NCBI GenBank assembly: GCA_034667685.1
Contig: JAXDQU010000072.1
Coordinates: forward strand, 1 to 20,703
Reading direction: 5' to 3'
Source of the DNA: Thermoplasmata archaeon
GTDB lineage: Archaea > Thermoplasmatota > SW-10-69-26 > JACQPN01 > JAJPHT01
Length of the DNA stretch: 20,703 nt
Each line of letters begins with the position of its first letter. Position 1 is the first letter of the stretch. A model generated the notes under the pieces. That model worked only from the letters and a program-made list of their open reading frames with translations. It made no database searches and was not told where the DNA came from. Position numbers and translations under genes: made by a program. Below are positions 9,652 to 17,018 of the stretch, one piece after another.

Positions 9652-10599
9652 ATGAAGGACTGGGCAGCCTGGCAGGACACCAAGGCACTCAGCTTCCTGC
9701 ATGCTCGCGTCCGCCAGATCCTGCGCAGCCGGGGCGTCGAGGACGAGTTCGTCGACTTCCAGGGCAGCCCGGTCCACTACTACGCCGCGGGCCCCCAGGA
9801 CGCCGACCGCACCGTGGTGCTGCTGCACGGCCTGGGCGACAGCGCGAACAACTGGTTCCGCACGCTCCCTCTGCTCGCGTGGCGCGGCGACCGCGTCCTC
9901 GCCATCGACCTCGCGGGGCACGGCTACACGCCCCCGCCCGACGAGCGCGGCTATCTTTCCATCCGCCAGAACGCGGAGCTGGTCAAGCACGTCGTCAAGC
10001 ACGCCCGCGCCGGGAGCGACCTCGCCATCGTGGGCCACAGCCTGGGCGGATGGGTCGCCGTCCGCGCGCACCTCACGGGCCTCGACGCGAGCCGCATGGT
10101 GCTCGTGGAGTCCGCCGGCCTCGTGCACGAGGGCATGTGGGACATGATCGAGATGCTGCGCATCGAGAAGGAGGCCGACGTGCGTCGCTTCTTCGGCACG
10201 GTCATGCACAAGACGCCCTTCGCGCTGGGCCTCATGTCGCGCGAAGTGGCGAGCATGTTCCGCTCGCCGGCCGTGGTCAACTTCATCGGCGCCAACAACC
10301 GCGAGGACATCATCTGGGACGAGGAGCTGGCCAACGTCCGCGCGCAGACGCACATCCTCTGGGGCGAGGACGACGGCCTGATCCCGCCGATCCTCGCGCA
10401 CCGCTGGCACGCCGGCATCCCGCGCAGCAGCCTCAAGTGGATCCCACGCTGCGGCCACGCGCCCCAGTTCGAGCGCCCGGTGCTCTTCGAGAAGATGCTC
10501 GAGGCGGCGCTGGGCCACCCGCCGCTCCAGGATGCGGTCCGCTCGCGCGTCGCGAGCCACCTGCCGCCGTGGCTGGGTAGGCGCGTCAGCAAGGCCTGA
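9652..10599 (+). CDS. Alpha/beta-fold hydrolase
   Basis: VVLLHGLGDS, AIDLAGHG, nucleophile elbow GHSLGG, ILWGEDD, CGHAPQFE (Ser-Asp-His triad). ATG 9652 chosen from TATA spacing. Confidence 0.92.
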   Translation: MKDWAAWQDTKALSFLHARVRQILRSRGVEDEFVDFQGSPVHYYAAGPQDADRTVVLLHGLGDSANNWFRTLPLLAWRGDRVLAIDLAGHGYTPPPDERGYLSIRQNAELVKHVVKHARAGSDLAIVGHSLGGWVAVRAHLTGLDASRMVLVESAGLVHEGMWDMIEMLRIEKEADVRRFFGTVMHKTPFALGLMSREVASMFRSPAVVNFIGANNREDIIWDEELANVRAQTHILWGEDDGLIPPILAHRWHAGIPRSSLKWIPRCGHAPQFERPVLFEKMLEAALGHPPLQDAVRSRVASHLPPWLGRRVSKA

Positions 10600-10610
10600 A
10601 GCATTCAAAT
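10598..10610 (+). promoter_or_regulatory. Putative TATA promoter of the wHTH-ATPase gene
   Basis: GAAGCATTCAAAT ends 26 nt before ATG 10637. Confidence 0.5.
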
Positions 10611-10636
10611 CCCCCCGCGCGGGTGCAAGCCGCGGC

Positions 10637-12013
10637 ATGAGCCTGACCCTGTCGCGCCGCGTCGTCGCGCACCTCGCCGTCCACCCCGTGCCGGAGGGCG
10701 CGGGCAGCGTGCCGCGCGAGGTCACGCAGGACGGCATCGCGGAGTCGCTGGGCGTCCAGGTCGCGCACGTCTCCCGCGCGCTCAAGGGGCTCGTCGCCGA
10801 AGGGCTCGTGCACGCCTACCTCGCGCATCCGAAGGGCGCCCGGCGCCGCAGCCGCGCGCACGTGCTCACCGACGCCGGCTACGCGCTGGCGCGCTCGCTG
10901 CCCAAGGAGCCGCCCGCCACCGTGACGCGCCGCGCGCCCGCGCAGGTCCCCGCGCCGCGCGTGCCCGCCGGCCGCGAGCGCGCGTTCGAGGAGCTCGTCG
11001 CGCTCTACGACTCCGCGCTCAAGGAAGGCCCGCGCATCGGTCTCGTCGAGGGCGCGGCCGGCATGGGCAAGTCGCGCCTCTTGGCCGCCTTCGCCGCGGA
11101 GGCCCAGCGCCGCGGCGCGCGTGTGCTATCAGGCGCCTCGGTCCCGGTGGGCGGCGAGCAGTGGCTCGGCCCGCTCGCGGCCGCGCTCGCGCCGCTCGGG
11201 CTCGACGCCCGCCTCCGCGCGCGCCCCGGCGGAACGCCCCGCGAGCGCGCGATGGAGGCCGCGCGCGAGACGGTCCTCGTGGGCGCGCAGTCCGCGCCGC
11301 TCGTGGTGCTGCTCGACGACCTGCATCACGCGGGCCCGGGCGCCGTCGAGTTCCTGCACGGCCTCTTCCTCGCGCTCCCGCAGGGCACGCGCGCGCTGTT
11401 CGTCGCCGCGTTCCGCCGCGAGGAGGCGTGGGCGCTTCCCAACGGTCCGCTCTACACCGCGCTCATGCCGGTGCGCGACCTCCCGCGCGCGAAGCTCGTC
11501 ACGCTCGGGCCGCTCGACGCGATGGCCGTCGGGTCGCTCCTGGAGGAGGCGGGCGTGCACATCCTGGGCGACAAGCGGCTCCCCGGGGACGTCGTGTCGC
11601 GCGTCTGGCGCGAGAGCGCGGGCAACCCCGCCTACGCGCTGGCGATGGGCGCGGAGCTGGCCGACGGCGTCGACGAGGAGGACTTCTTCCCCGCGAGCGT
11701 GCGGGCCGCGGCGCGCGAGAAAATCGCGAGCCTCGACGAGCGCCAGCTTGGCGTGCTCCAGCTCGCGGCCGTCGCGGGCGCCGAGTTCCCCTATCCCGTC
11801 CTCGCGCGCGCCCACGAGGGCAAGGAGGACGAGCTCGTCGCGGTCCTCGACCACCTGCTCGACAAGCTGTTCCTGGAGGAGTCGGCGGGCGGCGGGGGCG
11901 AGCTCGTGCTGCGCTTCGAGCACCCGAAGCTCCGCGAGGCCGTGCTCGGCGACCTGACCGCGAACCGCCGCCGCTGGCTCGAAGCGCGCGTCGCAGCCGC
12001 CCACGCGGCTTAA
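10637..12013 (+). CDS. Winged-helix DNA-binding domain fused to a STAND-type (AAA_16-like) ATPase
   Basis: TQDGIAESLGVQVAHVSRALKGLVAEGLV..LTDAG (wHTH); GRERAFEEL; Walker A GAAGMGKS; Walker B VVLLDDLH; SAGNPAY; FEHPKLRE. Confidence 0.88.
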   Translation: MSLTLSRRVVAHLAVHPVPEGAGSVPREVTQDGIAESLGVQVAHVSRALKGLVAEGLVHAYLAHPKGARRRSRAHVLTDAGYALARSLPKEPPATVTRRAPAQVPAPRVPAGRERAFEELVALYDSALKEGPRIGLVEGAAGMGKSRLLAAFAAEAQRRGARVLSGASVPVGGEQWLGPLAAALAPLGLDARLRARPGGTPRERAMEAARETVLVGAQSAPLVVLLDDLHHAGPGAVEFLHGLFLALPQGTRALFVAAFRREEAWALPNGPLYTALMPVRDLPRAKLVTLGPLDAMAVGSLLEEAGVHILGDKRLPGDVVSRVWRESAGNPAYALAMGAELADGVDEEDFFPASVRAAAREKIASLDERQLGVLQLAAVAGAEFPYPVLARAHEGKEDELVAVLDHLLDKLFLEESAGGGGELVLRFEHPKLREAVLGDLTANRRRWLEARVAAAHAA

Positions 12014-13512: not shown

Positions 13513-14709
13513 CTATGCGCGCGACTGGACGACGAACCGGCACGCCGCGTGGCCTTGGCTCCGGCACGCGACCTCGGCGCCCAGCGCGGGGCGGCCCGTC
13601 GCGGCGCCCACGACGCCTTCGAGATAGCCCAGCGCGAGGTGGCACGTGGGCTGCGCGCTCTCCGCGACGACCTCCAGGAGGTCCGCGCCGGTGAACGTGT
13701 AGCGCGCCCCGGCCTGCTCCACGAGGCGCACGTCGCCCCCGCCGAGCGTGCGGAACGCGTCGAGGTAGGCGCCCAGCTCGCGCGGGCCCTCCTCGTTGGC
13801 GCGCGTCACGAGGCGCTTGCCTAGCTCGCGCGTGCGCGTCACGTTGGTCGAGGCCTCGGCGACGTCCCGCAGCAGGAGCCGGACGAGCGTGCGGCTCACG
13901 AGCTGGCTCCGCGCCTCCTCCTCGGCGCGCTTGCGTTCGGTGATGTCGAGCATCTGCGTGATGTAGAGGCGCGGCTTCCCCGCCTCGTCGCGCATCACGC
14001 TGCTCGTGACGTGCCCCCACACGGCGTGGCCGTCCTTGTGGCGATATCGTTTCTCGAAGCGCAGCGTGGGCGTGCGCGACGTGACGAAGTCGTGGCCCGC
14101 GTCGTAGATCGGCTTCTCGTCCTCGGGGAACGTCAGCTTGAGGTAGCTCGCCCCGACGAGCTCCTCCTCGGCGTAGCCCACCATCGCGCAGAAGACGTGG
14201 TTGACGCGGACGTAGGCGCCCTGCGCGTCGAAGATCGCCATGCCCATCGCGGCCTCGTCGAACGCGCGCCGGAAGAGCTCCTCCGTGTCGTGGCGGGACG
14301 CGGCCTCCCGCTTCGCCGCGGTGAGGTCGTGCGCGAAGCTCATGATGAGCAGGCCGGGCGCTTCGGAGAGGTGGACGCTGGAGAGCATCACCGGGATGCG
14401 GCGGCCGTCCTTCGCCACGAGGACCGTCTCGTAGCGCTCGTGGACGGGCACCGTGACGCCCCGCTCCAGGTAGCGCTGCCTGACTTTCGGAAGCTCCTCG
14501 GGCGCCACGAGCGAAAGCATGCTCGGCAGCGCCTGGAGCTCGGCGAGCGTGTAGCCCACGAGGTCGAGGTAGGCCTGGTTGGCGTGGAGCAGCTTGGCCC
14601 CGTCGAGCACCAGCCCTCCCTCTCCCAGGGGGCTCAGCGCGTCGACGAGCCGAATGACCGTGGGCGCGTCCAGCGCCGGGCCTGGGGCTGGGGGCCTGTC
14701 GCTCACCAC
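13513..14709 (-). CDS. PAS-PAS-V4R sensor protein
   Basis: Two PAS/PAC domains (ANQAYLDLVGY..KDGRRIPV; VNHVFCAMVGY..EKRYRHKDG..DITERK) and a V4R-type tail PTCHLALGYLEG..EVACRSQGHAACRF. Confidence 0.88.
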   Translation of the reverse strand: MVSDRPPAPGPALDAPTVIRLVDALSPLGEGGLVLDGAKLLHANQAYLDLVGYTLAELQALPSMLSLVAPEELPKVRQRYLERGVTVPVHERYETVLVAKDGRRIPVMLSSVHLSEAPGLLIMSFAHDLTAAKREAASRHDTEELFRRAFDEAAMGMAIFDAQGAYVRVNHVFCAMVGYAEEELVGASYLKLTFPEDEKPIYDAGHDFVTSRTPTLRFEKRYRHKDGHAVWGHVTSSVMRDEAGKPRLYITQMLDITERKRAEEEARSQLVSRTLVRLLLRDVAEASTNVTRTRELGKRLVTRANEEGPRELGAYLDAFRTLGGGDVRLVEQAGARYTFTGADLLEVVAESAQPTCHLALGYLEGVVGAATGRPALGAEVACRSQGHAACRFVVQSRA

Positions 14710-14730
14710 GGGAGGTTTCGGCGCTTCTTG

Positions 14731-14738
14731 ACTTAATG
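14731..14738 (-). promoter_or_regulatory. Putative TATA box of the PAS-V4R gene
   Basis: Minus-strand CATTAAGT; TTAA lies 23 nt before GTG 14709. Confidence 0.5.
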
Positions 14739-14768
14739 GCCACTGGAAGGTCGCTGGGCTCGGTGGAC

Positions 14769-14938
14769 CTATTCCTGGAACTTGGCGAGGATGGCGTCGT
14801 AGACGCTGCGCTCGTCGCCAGAAGCTTTGCTCTGGAGCCTCTTCAGGATCAGCTCGGGCGTCGAACGGGCCCGGTAGTTCATCCTCGGGCTGCGGTCAAC
14901 GATCAGGTTCAGATGCTCGTCGAGCCCGCGCGCCTCGA
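14769..14938 (-). pseudogene. Duplicated 3' end of the mutS-like gene (possibly expressed as an 80-aa ORF, 14769-15011)
   Basis: Encodes EARGLDEHLNLIVDRSPRMNYRARSTPELILKRLQSKASGDERSVYDAILAKF, identical to the MutS C-terminus, then QE* instead of GAS*. Confidence 0.85.
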
Positions 14939-15187
14939 CACGGCCGGATCGCCTTCGGCGACCGCTCGCTTCGCTCGCTCCCGGCCTATCGAGGCGCGCG
15001 ACGACGAGCATCGTTCAGGAGGCGCCGAACTTCGCGAGGATGGCATCATAGACGCTCCGCTCGTCGCCGGAAGCCTTGCTCTGGAGCCTCTTCAGGATCA
15101 GCTCGGGCGTCGAACGGGCGCGGTAGTTCATCCTCGGGCTGCGGTCAACGATCAGGTTCAGATGCTCGTCGAGCCCGCGCGCCTCGA
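14778..15187. repeat. 161-bp direct repeat pair (14778-14938 and 15027-15187), period 249 bp
   Basis: Manual alignment gives 154/161 identity, no indels. Confidence 0.95.
14912..15012. repeat. 101-nt branched hairpin at the duplication junction
   Basis: 14912-14922 pairs with 15002-15012 (11 bp); 14927-14938 with 14989-15000 (12 bp); GGCCGG 14942-14947 with CCGGCC 14981-14986; inner TCGCC-TTC-GGCGA. Confidence 0.85.
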
Positions 15188-16913
15188 TGCCATCGATCCG
15201 CACGCGGGTGTATTGCGAGACCTGCTCGGCCATGTGCGTGACGCAGACGCCGTAGCTGCCCGTCTCGCGGAGCATCTCGATGAAGGTGCCCACGATCTTG
15301 CTCGCGGCCTCCAGCTCGGTCATGGCCTCCAGCTCGTCGGCGAGGACGAGCTTCGCGCCCCTGCTCGTCACGATGGGGAGGAAGCCCTTGAGGAAGCTCT
15401 CGAAGGCGCCCGCGTCGAGCGACCGCTTCTGCGTGAAGAAGTAGACCCCCTCCACGTGCGGGACGGTGGCCGACCTCGCGTTGACCGGGAGCCCCAGGTG
15501 CGCGAGGATGGCGACCTGGCTGAGCGTCTCCAGGAGCGTCGTCTTGCCGCCCGAGTTGGCGCCCGTGAGCAGGGCGACCTGGTGCTGCCTGTCGAGCAGG
15601 TAGTCGATCGGCGCGCCCCCCGCCCGCGCGAGGTTGAGATGGAGCGCGCCCTCGACGCGCAGCTCCTTGCCGAACGTCGCGGGCTCCAGGCCGTACTCCA
15701 GCGCGAAGCTGCCCAGGGCGAAGGCGTAGTCGAACTCCAGGAGCGCGTGGACCTCGGCCTCGGCCTTCTCGCGCAGGCCGCCGAGCTTCCGGGCCGCGTC
15801 GACCTTCACGCGGAACGCGGCGCGCTTCTTGCGCCCTTCCAATTCCTGGCGCTTGCGCTCCATCGCCTCCTCGTCGATCTTGACGGGGAAGCCGTCGGTG
15901 AAGACCTGCGTGAAGTCCTCGCCCGTCTCGCGCATCAGGCGCTCGCGCCCCTCGCGGAGCACGCTGGCCTGGAGGTCGCGCACCTTGCGCGGCGTCCTGC
16001 CGGACATCATCTCCAGCACCTCGTCGCCGCTCATGCTGAGCGACTTCGAGCGCGCGGCGGTCTCGGCGTTGATCCACGCGATGGCGTCGGCGAGGCTCTT
16101 CTCGACCGCGGCGAAGCTGAACTCTTTCTGCTGGAGGCCGTCGAGCGTGTCGAGGATCGCGCGCATGGCCGAGGGCCGCCCCAGGATGCCGGAGAGCTCC
16201 AGCGCGGACTCCCAGATGGCGCGGTTCTCGCGGAAGTAGGCGAGCGCGGCGTCGGGCACGAGGTCGGCGACGTGGCGGCTGAAGGGGACCTGGATGACGT
16301 TCTCCGCGCCGGTGAGGTCGAGCAGTCCCTGCGAATAGGCGTAGACGAGGACCTCGTTCCCGGGCGTGCCGTCGTCGGCGGTGCTGACCTGGCAGACGCG
16401 GTCGACGCCGGCCTTCACGAGCGCCTCGTAGTCGGCCTGCGTGTCGACGACGACGCAGACCGTGCTGTCGAACTTCGGCCTCGGCTGGCGCGGCTTGGCG
16501 AGCCGGCCCAGGAGCTTGGCGACCGCGGCGCGGTCGAGGCCCGCGACGCGCTTGCGCGACTCCTGCACGAAGGCGAGGCGCTCCTTCGCCTCCTTGGGCG
16601 GGACGGGGACGAGGAGCGCGATCTTGTTGCGGGCGTGCGCGGTGTTGGCGAAGGCGCCGATGCGGGCGAGCACGTCCTCGTAGAGCGTCTCGGCGCGCGG
16701 CGTGCGCAGGAAGTCGGCCGGCGCGCGGCCCTGGACGCGGAGCACCAGCTCGACGGCCTTGCGCTCCGAGATGCCTTCGACGGCCGCGATGCGGTCCACC
16801 TGCGAGGCGCGCGCGGCCTCGTAGAACGCCTCGGCGCCGCCGAACTCCTTCACGAGCCGCTCCGCGAGGGCCTCGCCCACGCCGGGCAGGTCGGTGAGCG
16901 GCGCAGGGGCCAT
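15015..16913 (-). CDS. mutS: Archaeal MutS5/MutS2-like ATPase (N-terminal helix-hairpin-helix plus MutS domain V)
   Basis: LTDLPGVGEALAERL and VEGISERKA HhH motifs; Walker A LTGANSGGKTT; LVLADELEAMTE; CVTHM; RSTPELI. No mismatch-binding domain I and no Smr domain seen. Alternative start GTG 16940. Confidence 0.9.
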   Translation of the reverse strand: MAPAPLTDLPGVGEALAERLVKEFGGAEAFYEAARASQVDRIAAVEGISERKAVELVLRVQGRAPADFLRTPRAETLYEDVLARIGAFANTAHARNKIALLVPVPPKEAKERLAFVQESRKRVAGLDRAAVAKLLGRLAKPRQPRPKFDSTVCVVVDTQADYEALVKAGVDRVCQVSTADDGTPGNEVLVYAYSQGLLDLTGAENVIQVPFSRHVADLVPDAALAYFRENRAIWESALELSGILGRPSAMRAILDTLDGLQQKEFSFAAVEKSLADAIAWINAETAARSKSLSMSGDEVLEMMSGRTPRKVRDLQASVLREGRERLMRETGEDFTQVFTDGFPVKIDEEAMERKRQELEGRKKRAAFRVKVDAARKLGGLREKAEAEVHALLEFDYAFALGSFALEYGLEPATFGKELRVEGALHLNLARAGGAPIDYLLDRQHQVALLTGANSGGKTTLLETLSQVAILAHLGLPVNARSATVPHVEGVYFFTQKRSLDAGAFESFLKGFLPIVTSRGAKLVLADELEAMTELEAASKIVGTFIEMLRETGSYGVCVTHMAEQVSQYTRVRIDGIEARGLDEHLNLIVDRSPRMNYRARSTPELILKRLQSKASGDERSVYDAILAKFGAS

Positions 16914-17018
16914 CTTGTCAGGTTGCGCGAGCACGGCCACGGTGCATCCCTGGTGCGACCGCAGCGCGTTTCCAGAATTGGCCTTGAGGGAGGGAAGAGC
17001 GAAACTGCTCCCCGGCTC

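Follow-up and report, generated by a model that had tools for sequence, protein, structure and literature searches.

A candidate miniature hairpin element carrying replacement gene ends in a Thermoplasmata archaeon

Elements of the IS200/IS605 family and their miniature derivatives transpose as single strands. Their ends are hairpins, the target is found through pairing with an internal guide of about 4 nucleotides (nt) next to the hairpin foot, and insertion leaves no target duplication and no loss of target function. The element e14 encodes its own integrase. According to the accessible part of PMC13626634, e14 is about 15 kb long and brings its own 3′ end of the target gene icd, the former end being displaced as the icdC fragment and the two copies differing mostly silently; e14 excises under the SOS response, and its loss fuses the two ends into a working chimera. 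Repetitive extragenic palindromic (REP) sequences are described in the available part of PMC3733652 as lying just after stop codons, supplying TAG stops, sitting in frame and occurring in repair genes, and the background of the same paper cites the Rickettsia palindromic elements (RPEs). The present analysis concerns a 20,703-nt stretch (hereafter the window) from a Thermoplasmata archaeon (GCA_034667685.1, contig JAXDQU010000072.1), in which the 3′ end of a gene for a MutS-related ATPase is present twice, on either side of a short spacer holding an inverted copy and a hairpin. The explanation given somewhat better than even chances is that the locus holds a miniature hairpin element, non-autonomous and belonging to a REP-like family specific to the lineage, which carries a replacement gene end.

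A repeat search of the window finds a direct repeat of 161 nt, spaced 249 nt from start to start, with 96% identity and 7 differences (Table 1). Both copies and their open reading frames (ORFs) lie on the minus strand. All seven differences are synonymous third-position changes, and 53 codons translate identically before the tails diverge. A random base change in these codons is synonymous with a probability of 0.239, giving P = 4.5e-5 for seven out of seven. The differences are unevenly spread: the first 67 nt are identical, and the changes fall at repeat positions 68, 113, 119, 131, 140, 143 and 155 in gene orientation (C/G, G/A, C/T, G/C, T/C, T/C and G/C, respectively). G+C content at third codon positions (GC3) is 0.89 in copy B, compared with about 0.98 in the rest of the gene. 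Codons ending in A or T make up 6 of 53 within either copy and 12 of 584 in the remaining gene, and AGR accounts for 2 of 7 arginine codons within the repeat and 5 of 47 outside it. These figures confirm every factual statement that an earlier sequence-only reading had made about the duplicate, namely seven substitutions in 161 bp, all silent third-position changes, followed by different tails, as well as its remark that both copies carry codons rare elsewhere in the gene.

The spacer between the repeats is 88 nt long, of which 12 nt are the tail and stop codon of copy B. In gene orientation, the remaining 76 nt run through 3 nt, a 24-nt inverted copy and a hairpin that directly adjoins copy A. 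The inverted copy, recovered by an inverted-repeat search and also within a self-inverted match (14912-15012), corresponds, but for one 3-nt gap, to the 27 nt with which the repeat begins and is predicted to pair with the start of copy A. The hairpin has the form YAGGCCGG..loop..CCGGCCGTG. Canonical copies (GAYAGGCCGG-loop-CCGGCCGTG) measure 27-31 nt, whereas the core of the window's copy, TAGGCCGG..CCGGCCGTG, reaches 50 nt through an enlarged loop made of a small hairpin and a GAGCGAAGCGAGCG motif. The 3′ end of the hairpin and the start of the repeat overlap by 2-4 nt. Folded as single-stranded DNA, the spacer and the start of copy A are predicted to give a single long stem capped by the hairpin (-48.7 kcal/mol, z = -4.92); 200 shuffled sequences include none of equal stability. 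Rfam returns no family on either strand of 14600-15300 at E values up to 1.

Table 1. Positions of the duplicated gene end, its spacer and neighbouring genes in the window, and of tRNA genes with a duplicated end elsewhere in the same genome (aa, amino acids)
Feature	Contig	Position	Strand	Description
Copy B (X′)	window	15027..15187	-	working 3′ end of the 641-aa gene
Copy B tail	window	15015..15026	-	G-A-S and TGA stop (..KFGAS*)
Inverted copy	window	14989..15012	-	24 nt, from the start of the repeat
REP-like hairpin core	window	14939..14988	-	enlarged loop; directly adjoins copy A
Copy A (X)	window	14778..14938	-	repeat copy downstream of the 641-aa gene's stop
Copy A tail	window	14769..14777	-	Q-E and TAG stop (..KFQE*)
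80-aa ORF containing copy A	window	14769..15011	-	ATG in the spacer, 3 nt past the gene's stop; no Pfam family
641-aa MutS-related ATPase gene	window	15015..16940	-	N-terminal helix-hairpin-helix domain; from ORF and translation; intact
PAS/V4R sensor gene	window	13513..14709	-	downstream of copy A; outside the element
tRNA-Leu	C41	3979-4060		duplicated end
tRNA-Val	C21	92267-92340		duplicated end
tRNA-Leu	C61	2603-2687		duplicated end
tRNA-Gly	C12	75097-75167		duplicated end
tRNA-Met	C21	89922-89996		duplicated end

A DNA search of the window's own genome (G000; contigs are given C numbers) shows that the spacer recurs on contig C84. At this second locus (C84, 15556-15951; L002 1358-1753), a HacA/LeuC-family gene (NCBIfam) has its final 146 nt duplicated at a distance of 250 nt downstream. 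The pair has 82% DNA identity, with 27 base differences and one amino-acid change that leaves 47 of 48 residues identical, and its spacer is homologous to that of the window, the inner stem showing compensating changes. Searching with a profile built on the long-loop spacer of the window gives convincing copies at C72 and C84 only, all other matches having E > 0.28, and the wider family is detectable only through its short core motif, which occurs about 19 times in the genome. The common architecture is a working gene end, a stop codon, an inverted copy, the hairpin and a displaced gene end. Among 26 regular-expression matches to this core (type A), 9 have a repeat of the upstream gene's end that begins directly after CCGTG, and at these nine loci (on C9, C19, C72, C76, C79, C82, C84, C106 and C118) an inverted copy of the repeat start stands directly before the hairpin. 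The same construction is built with other hairpins, including a CCGAA-stem variant, an 85-nt ‘type B’ element with six copies and a few others.

After inspection, the architecture was tabulated at 22 protein-gene 3′ ends; it is also seen at one 5′ end, that of a HerA-like gene, where a type-B copy replaces the 5′ end and the hairpin side again adjoins the displaced fragment. A low-threshold scan of all ORF ends (1806 pairs) is mostly noise, and the filtered and inspected rows alone were used. A protein-level scan of 5821 ORFs identifies 14 whose last six residues and stop recur no more than 400 nt downstream, one of them belonging to a genuine P0/P1 paralogue pair. Repeats range from 10 to 161 nt, periods at true loci from 54 to 250 nt and inverted copies from 10 to 47 nt. 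The inverted copy is derived from the target and is different at every locus, and the insert minus its gene end comprises 35-120 nt of hairpins and no gene.

Proteins whose gene ends are occupied include RadA, PCNA, ribosomal proteins S7 and S10, an RpoN-like protein, FttA, a class II aminoacyl-tRNA synthetase, SufB/D, AdoHcyase, a biotinyl carrier protein and HerA. Such a choice of conserved core genes is typical of integrating elements. tRNA genes are affected as well: 3 of 48 have a duplicated 3′ end and 2 of 48 a duplicated 5′ end, with the duplicates lying 64-194 nt from the gene; a predicted ‘tRNA-Gly’ on C106 was dropped from this count (repetitive region). At the tRNA-Leu gene of C41, the copies are separated by a complete type-B element, and the T-loop is altered in the displaced one. 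The sequence-only reading had regarded the MutS gene as the target of a single event, a view that gives way to the recurrence of the same construction at 22 protein-gene ends and at tRNA genes. On contig C55 (about 25060-25160), a 66-nt unit composed of a short direct copy, a loop, an inverted copy and a hairpin lies in frame within an ORF, with the coding signal continuing on both sides.

MutS-like homologues were found in 29 of the 41 genomes searched, and the mutS 3′ end is single-copy at all 19 relatives' loci examined. The metagenomic set comprises 49 loci, of which L072, where the match reaches the end of the locus, was omitted; none of the other 48 contains the duplicate, the best repeat score being at most 34 compared with 294 in the window under the same scoring. 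The empty alleles for which the earlier reading had recommended looking are therefore represented by single mutS ends in 19 of 19 relatives' loci and 48 of 48 metagenome loci, and no allele with larger cargo between the copies occurs in either set. The end of the HacA-like gene is likewise single-copy in four of four relatives. Both tail types of the window are seen among relatives: the mutS tail is xE* in G003 and G004, the type of copy A, and GAP..* in G001, and a tail similar to that of copy B (..KFGA*) is present in the metagenome relative L033.

A hairpin pattern, AGGCCG-stem-CCGCAG-stem-CGGCCG, is found in 7 of the 41 genomes, with 14 copies in G000, 7 in G003, 4 in G008, 3 in G005, 2 in G004 and 1 each in G007 and G013. 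All but G013 belong to the same taxonomic family, and a reversed-pattern control gives 0-1 matches. Of 17 hairpin loci examined in relatives, 10 are flanked by gene-end or tRNA-end repeats, as exemplified by a 60-nt repeat with five silent changes in G003. An exact 27-nt core, searched over the genomes of 185,579 species (one genome per species, so that records near the window's own genome may be missing), has one foreign match, on an Actinomycetota metagenome-assembled contig (L024), which may reflect chance or transfer.

Several individual loci in relatives bear on the behaviour of such hairpins. At L089 in G008, two tandem hairpin units are each followed by a copy of one gene end (..IYGEYREPAIF*), which suggests repeated insertion at one site. 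At L007 in G002, the TAG stop of the mutS homologue is supplied by a different REP-like hairpin (GATAGGACGAA..TTCGTCC), downstream of which lie two tandem units of about 130 nt built of hairpins; L035 was also noted. Judged from these sequences, the mutS gene end appears to be occupied in another species by another hairpin variant. For the S10 gene end there are two silent variants (..CTG AGG ACx TGA and ..CTG CGC ACC TGA), both of them present in G000 (C79, about 46180-46290) and in G004 (L097), with hairpin units arranged differently around them in the two genomes. These forms represent either a trans-species allele pair or repeated targeting.

The pattern of differences seen at mutS extends to the whole family. 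Over 20 loci and 295 compared codons, 71 codon differences are synonymous and 3 non-synonymous, the latter all falling on aligned codon 2, next to the edge of the repeat that faces the hairpin. This tally omits AdoHcyase and a PurP-like gene, which have protein-level differences (8 synonymous and 7 non-synonymous in the PurP-like gene); these differences are conservative, with frame and stop retained. All 22 loci together give 331 codons with 79 synonymous and 10 non-synonymous differences, and base differences of 17, 10 and 84 at the first, second and third codon positions. Ungapped scoring cut SufB/D and AdoHcyase to 2-3 codons, and their fuller alignments were inspected by eye. The silent changes include switches between TCN and AGY for serine and between AGR and CGN for arginine, and stop codons are unlike between the copies at seven loci. 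A displaced, unused fragment would not drift through silent changes only; therefore both copies evolved mostly as coding ends and, as far as their sequences tell, must have been coding ends for nearly all of their separate history. The 20-locus tally upholds the logic of the sequence-only reading, in which purely synonymous differences mark two ends that each evolved as coding sequence.

Within each pair, the two copies can be told apart. In the window, copy A behaves as the former 3′ end, now displaced, and copy B with the spacer as the insertion; copy B is accordingly read as an element-linked replacement end. With single-copy alleles elsewhere, this agrees with the minimal, integrase-less, gene-end-replacing element that had been proposed from the window alone. 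Codon-weighted mean GC3 is 0.852 in working copies and 0.899 in displaced copies. Near the point where the repeat begins, the HacA-like gene shows a drop in GC3 from about 1.0 to 0.7-0.8, and identity with the G003 orthologue at third positions declines from about 0.8 to 0.4-0.5. The displaced copy reads APGERC, as do four relatives, and the working copy AAGERC. The working copy differs from the displaced copy and from the ends in G003, G004 and G008 at 46-50% of third positions, whereas the latter three differ from one another at 28-33% (27-33% in the gene body) and the displaced copy is intermediate (30-43%). By these comparisons, the working copy appears to be a long-branched sister of the resident end. 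The inverted copy at C84 matches the working copy at 17 of 17 positions and the displaced copy at 13 of 17, with a similar bias at C118. Because it fits the working copy better, it belongs with that copy.

Given the architecture and its recurrence, the single ends seen in other genomes and samples, and a coding constraint that acts on both copies, the favoured element would operate as follows. The inserted unit would consist of copy B (including its tail and stop), a short stretch repeating the start of copy B in inverted orientation, and the conserved hairpin. It would sit exactly before the former gene end, so that copy A is shifted downstream and out of use. Since this leaves the gene intact, even essential genes and tRNAs could accommodate the insertion. 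The replacement end would travel with the element, selection keeping it coding, and the displaced end would have been the working end until recently, or would become so again upon loss of the unit. The copies would then differ almost only silently because the displaced end was recently (or recurrently) working and the replacement end is under coding selection. The unit is presumed to be inherited and moved as a block, within polyploid cells and/or between strains, and filled and empty alleles may coexist or exchange, making the displaced copy repeatedly the working end. A trans-acting enzyme that recognises the hairpin would move the unit, and pairing of the inverted copy with the target could place the hairpin's 3′ end at the insertion point.

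A bolder version, held only tentatively and considered doubtful, treats the unit as programmable homing DNA. Here, a gene-free unit of 50-250 nt would combine a recoded gene end, an inverted ‘guide’ and a positioning hairpin, and would be inserted as single-stranded DNA before the ends of essential protein genes and tRNA genes by an enzyme of the host or of an element, homing into empty alleles in polyploid cells or between strains. If true, such homing would leave locally A/T-enriched, silently diverged gene ends, as seen.

Several observations weigh against a mobile hairpin element. No movement was observed, and the evidence is at the level of contigs. The model does not explain how the end of a new gene, and its inverted copy, come to join a unit. 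The two mutS copies have four unusual A/T-ending codons in common; copy A is therefore not a pristine resident end, and it looks like a former element-linked end itself. A derived Met is common to both HacA-like copies. The working copy there thus did not originate in a distant lineage, and a silent divergence reaching 46% of third positions requires that it be old or have changed at an accelerated rate. The copies are, moreover, identical at five loci (C8, C82, C84b and C111b; L086 in G003), as an on-the-spot duplication would give.

The search for an enzyme also counts against mobility. G000, which is 99% complete in 124 contigs, contains no Y1 transposase/RAYT (PF01797), a family that a control search found in 6 of 14 named genomes, and searches of G000 for TnpB and for the IS110 transposase likewise gave no matches. 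The annotated ORFs of the window include neither an integrase or transposase nor a reverse transcriptase. Five tyrosine recombinase genes are encoded in G000, and no canonical hairpin copy lies within 15 kb of any of them. No candidate enzyme is thus at hand. Just upstream of one of these recombinase genes (C1, 13340-13460), a hairpin loosely like the long-loop variant stands between two copies of an 11-nt word, an arrangement that could be an att region.

The main rival, considered unlikely on present evidence, is a local, non-mobile event in which a template switch or fold-back at the hairpin made the extra direct and inverted copies, as a miniature duplication or inverted triplication, followed by drift. 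It would account for three copies (direct, inverted, direct) sharing a common boundary, for the 2-4 nt of microhomology at that boundary, for the identical copies at five loci, and for repeat lengths that vary over 10-161 nt in a manner unlike the fixed target duplications of transposases. An unused copy should, however, gain indels and changes at all codon positions, and the 20-locus tally is almost wholly synonymous; the C84 pair, with its many base differences and single amino-acid change, is the clearest case. The conserved hairpin would still have to arrive from elsewhere each time, and the same part order is found at more than 20 loci in several genomes. A template-switch duplication may well describe how a unit is born.

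The sequence-only reading had also considered a collapsed attL/attR scar, that is, the remnant of a conventional integrase-carrying element with its interior deleted. Replacement ends with silent differences are known for such elements, as the accessible part of PMC13626634 describes for e14 in icd with its displaced icdC fragment, and the five tyrosine recombinases encoded in the genome could be cited in support. This explanation is nevertheless improbable. The spacer consists of a defined hairpin repeat and an inverted target copy, and the same 35-120-nt residue, with the hairpin adjoining the displaced copy, would have to arise independently at more than 20 loci; the lack of an integrase among the window's annotated ORFs and of larger-cargo alleles among the 19 relatives' and 48 metagenome loci points the same way.

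Alternatively, the downstream copy could be a genuine small gene whose 80-aa product is a stand-alone C-terminal module, with its translation coupled to that of the MutS-like gene and selection maintaining it. Its ATG lies 3 nt after the upstream stop, its frame is open and in phase with copy A, and the C84 locus also has an ORF, of 77 aa. The homologous spacers are read in different frames at mutS and C84, however, and the window's ORF has no Pfam family. Other displaced copies lack a start codon or are just 4-10 codons long (the copy at C76 contains stops and has no start upstream), and tRNA ends are duplicated in the same way. A selected small gene is accordingly very improbable, and the 80-aa ORF is probably no real gene.

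Slighter still are the chances of an assembly artefact in which two strain haplotypes of the gene end were joined in tandem in the metagenome-assembled genome. The assembly comes from a soil metagenome and is in 124 contigs, the differences between the copies are strain-like, and no single contig from public sequencing runs, for which the evidence consists of assembled contigs, spans both copies. The latter is attributable to the shared part, which breaks the assembly graph. Two soil runs (X1 and X2), either of which is possibly the source sample, hold 89% of the region's sampled words, and their contigs, produced by a different assembler, include a 197-nt piece identical to 14909-15105. This piece comprises the whole spacer with both junctions, joining it to 79 nt specific to copy B on one side and to the first 30 nt of the repeat on the other. 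The C84 pair, only 82% identical, and the presence of the same construction in several other genomes argue further against an artefact. The 197-nt spacer contig has about half the depth of its flanks in X1 and X2, which was considered as a sign of a mixed population and set aside, contig depths not being comparable along the gene. In a third run (X3), a contig of a related strain is near-identical upstream of about 15150, has 11 differences in 15105-15150 and continues colinearly into a copy-A-like end; its joint, placed at 90% likeness and with a side of 21 nt, leads from 15078 via 24 other letters to 14804-14784, and the last 21 nt of copy A match the end of this contig. This contig gives a weak hint of a single-copy third allele in a related strain. 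Finally, a template/variable repeat pair of a diversity-generating retroelement would explain a repeat pair at a gene 3′ end with a hairpin after the first copy, and is refuted by substitutions that are not adenine-specific and change no amino acid, no reverse transcriptase being among the window's annotated ORFs, so that its probability is negligible.

The host gene is presumably functional. Its protein scores 31.3 bits against Pfam HHH_5 (cut-off 27) and 24.9 bits against MutS_V, under the cut-off of 30.2; the NCBIfam models MutS2 (76.6 bits) and KamC (77.1 bits) both stay far under their cut-offs. Archaeal MutS5, the name that the sequence-only reading gave to the gene, is therefore putative; such proteins have the MutS-type ATPase domain V without a mismatch-binding domain. 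The G003 orthologue is 86% identical, and the sequence downstream of the mutS locus is unlike that of G003 and G004. The organism is archaeal by gene content (PCNA, Rad51-type RadA, FttA and A/V-type ATPase subunit D). Other ORFs of the window encode a YceI protein, a PQQ propeller, a DNA glycosylase, ATPase subunit D, a hydrolase, an ABC ATPase, a STAND-like ATPase and the PAS/V4R sensor. An ORF at 10532-12013 on the plus strand, with an N-terminal MarR/Crp-like helix-turn-helix and an AAA_16 STAND-type ATPase domain, is unrelated to the duplicated end. A period of about 250 nt was tried as a signature of the element and rejected, as other pairs spaced 249-261 nt apart are tandem small paralogues (C34, C10) or repeats inside one long ORF (C9, C97). 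The paralogues at C34 (9762-10180; ribbon-helix-helix-like) and C10 (14225-14602; small secreted proteins), with periods of 253 and 249 nt, resemble the element's spacing by chance.

If the preferred reading of a mobile hairpin element is true, soil archaea of this family carry a selfish element that is little more than a hairpin. Core genes (RadA, PCNA, ribosomal proteins, an RNA polymerase subunit, tRNAs and a MutS-like ATPase) would have been colonised at their ends while staying active. Gene-end replacement of the kind seen with prophages such as e14 would extend to a gene-free element, and REP-like repeats would be seen to reshape coding sequence. Silent divergence that peaks sharply and locally at gene ends, and the odd codon usage found there, both otherwise open to being misread as recombination or selection, would have a cause, and small downstream ORFs such as the 80-aa ORF would call for caution in annotation as displaced fragments. 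The target-complementary inverted copy beside a constant hairpin would also raise the testable prospect of DNA-guided insertion.

A tiny mobile element that enters essential genes without breaking them is apparently undescribed. Literature searches returned no description of hairpin repeats flanked by duplicated gene ends, although the supplements of PMC3733652 on intragenic REPs might bear on the question, and the word stem ‘duplicat’ is absent from the parts available of PMC3733652 and of PMC12306157, a 2025 survey of REPs in bacteria and archaea. REPs and REPINs are the nearest likeness for the hairpin itself: a short, G+C-rich imperfect palindrome of the 20-40 nt class with a conserved unpaired tag at the 5′ foot (here YAGG; GTAGGG in type B). 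As with REPs, the hairpins are species- or family-specific, lie just after stop codons, sometimes give the TAG stop or sit in frame, and occur in repair genes. They differ in copy number, which is in the tens (14 exact copies in G000, 1-7 in six relatives and 6 of type B) rather than hundreds or more than 100 per genome, in the failure to find a cognate RAYT (Y1 transposase) in G000 and, foremost, in the flanking 10-161-nt direct duplicate of the gene end together with its inverted copy. Miniature inverted-repeat transposable elements differ in that the flanking repeats here are variable (10-161 nt) and not a fixed target duplication, and the inverted copy derives from the target and not from the terminal repeat of a parent insertion sequence. 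Relative to IS200/IS605 elements, the inverted copy is longer (10-47 nt), the direct repeat flanking the insert is long, and neither TnpA nor TnpB was found in G000.

Integrase-type elements share with this family the direct repeats of the target end that flank the insert, attL/attR fashion, and an insert that supplies the working end. Between the tail and copy A, however, there is a 76-nt non-coding hairpin region in place of kilobase-sized cargo, and the window has no integrase. Like e14 and the elements that target tRNA genes, the family uses conserved genes and tRNAs as targets; unlike e14, its more than 20 targets share one hairpin family and the insert is gene-free. The C55 copy, as an in-frame insert within an ORF, recalls the RPEs. 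RPEs add residues to the protein, whereas most copies of the present family avoid this by duplicating the gene end.

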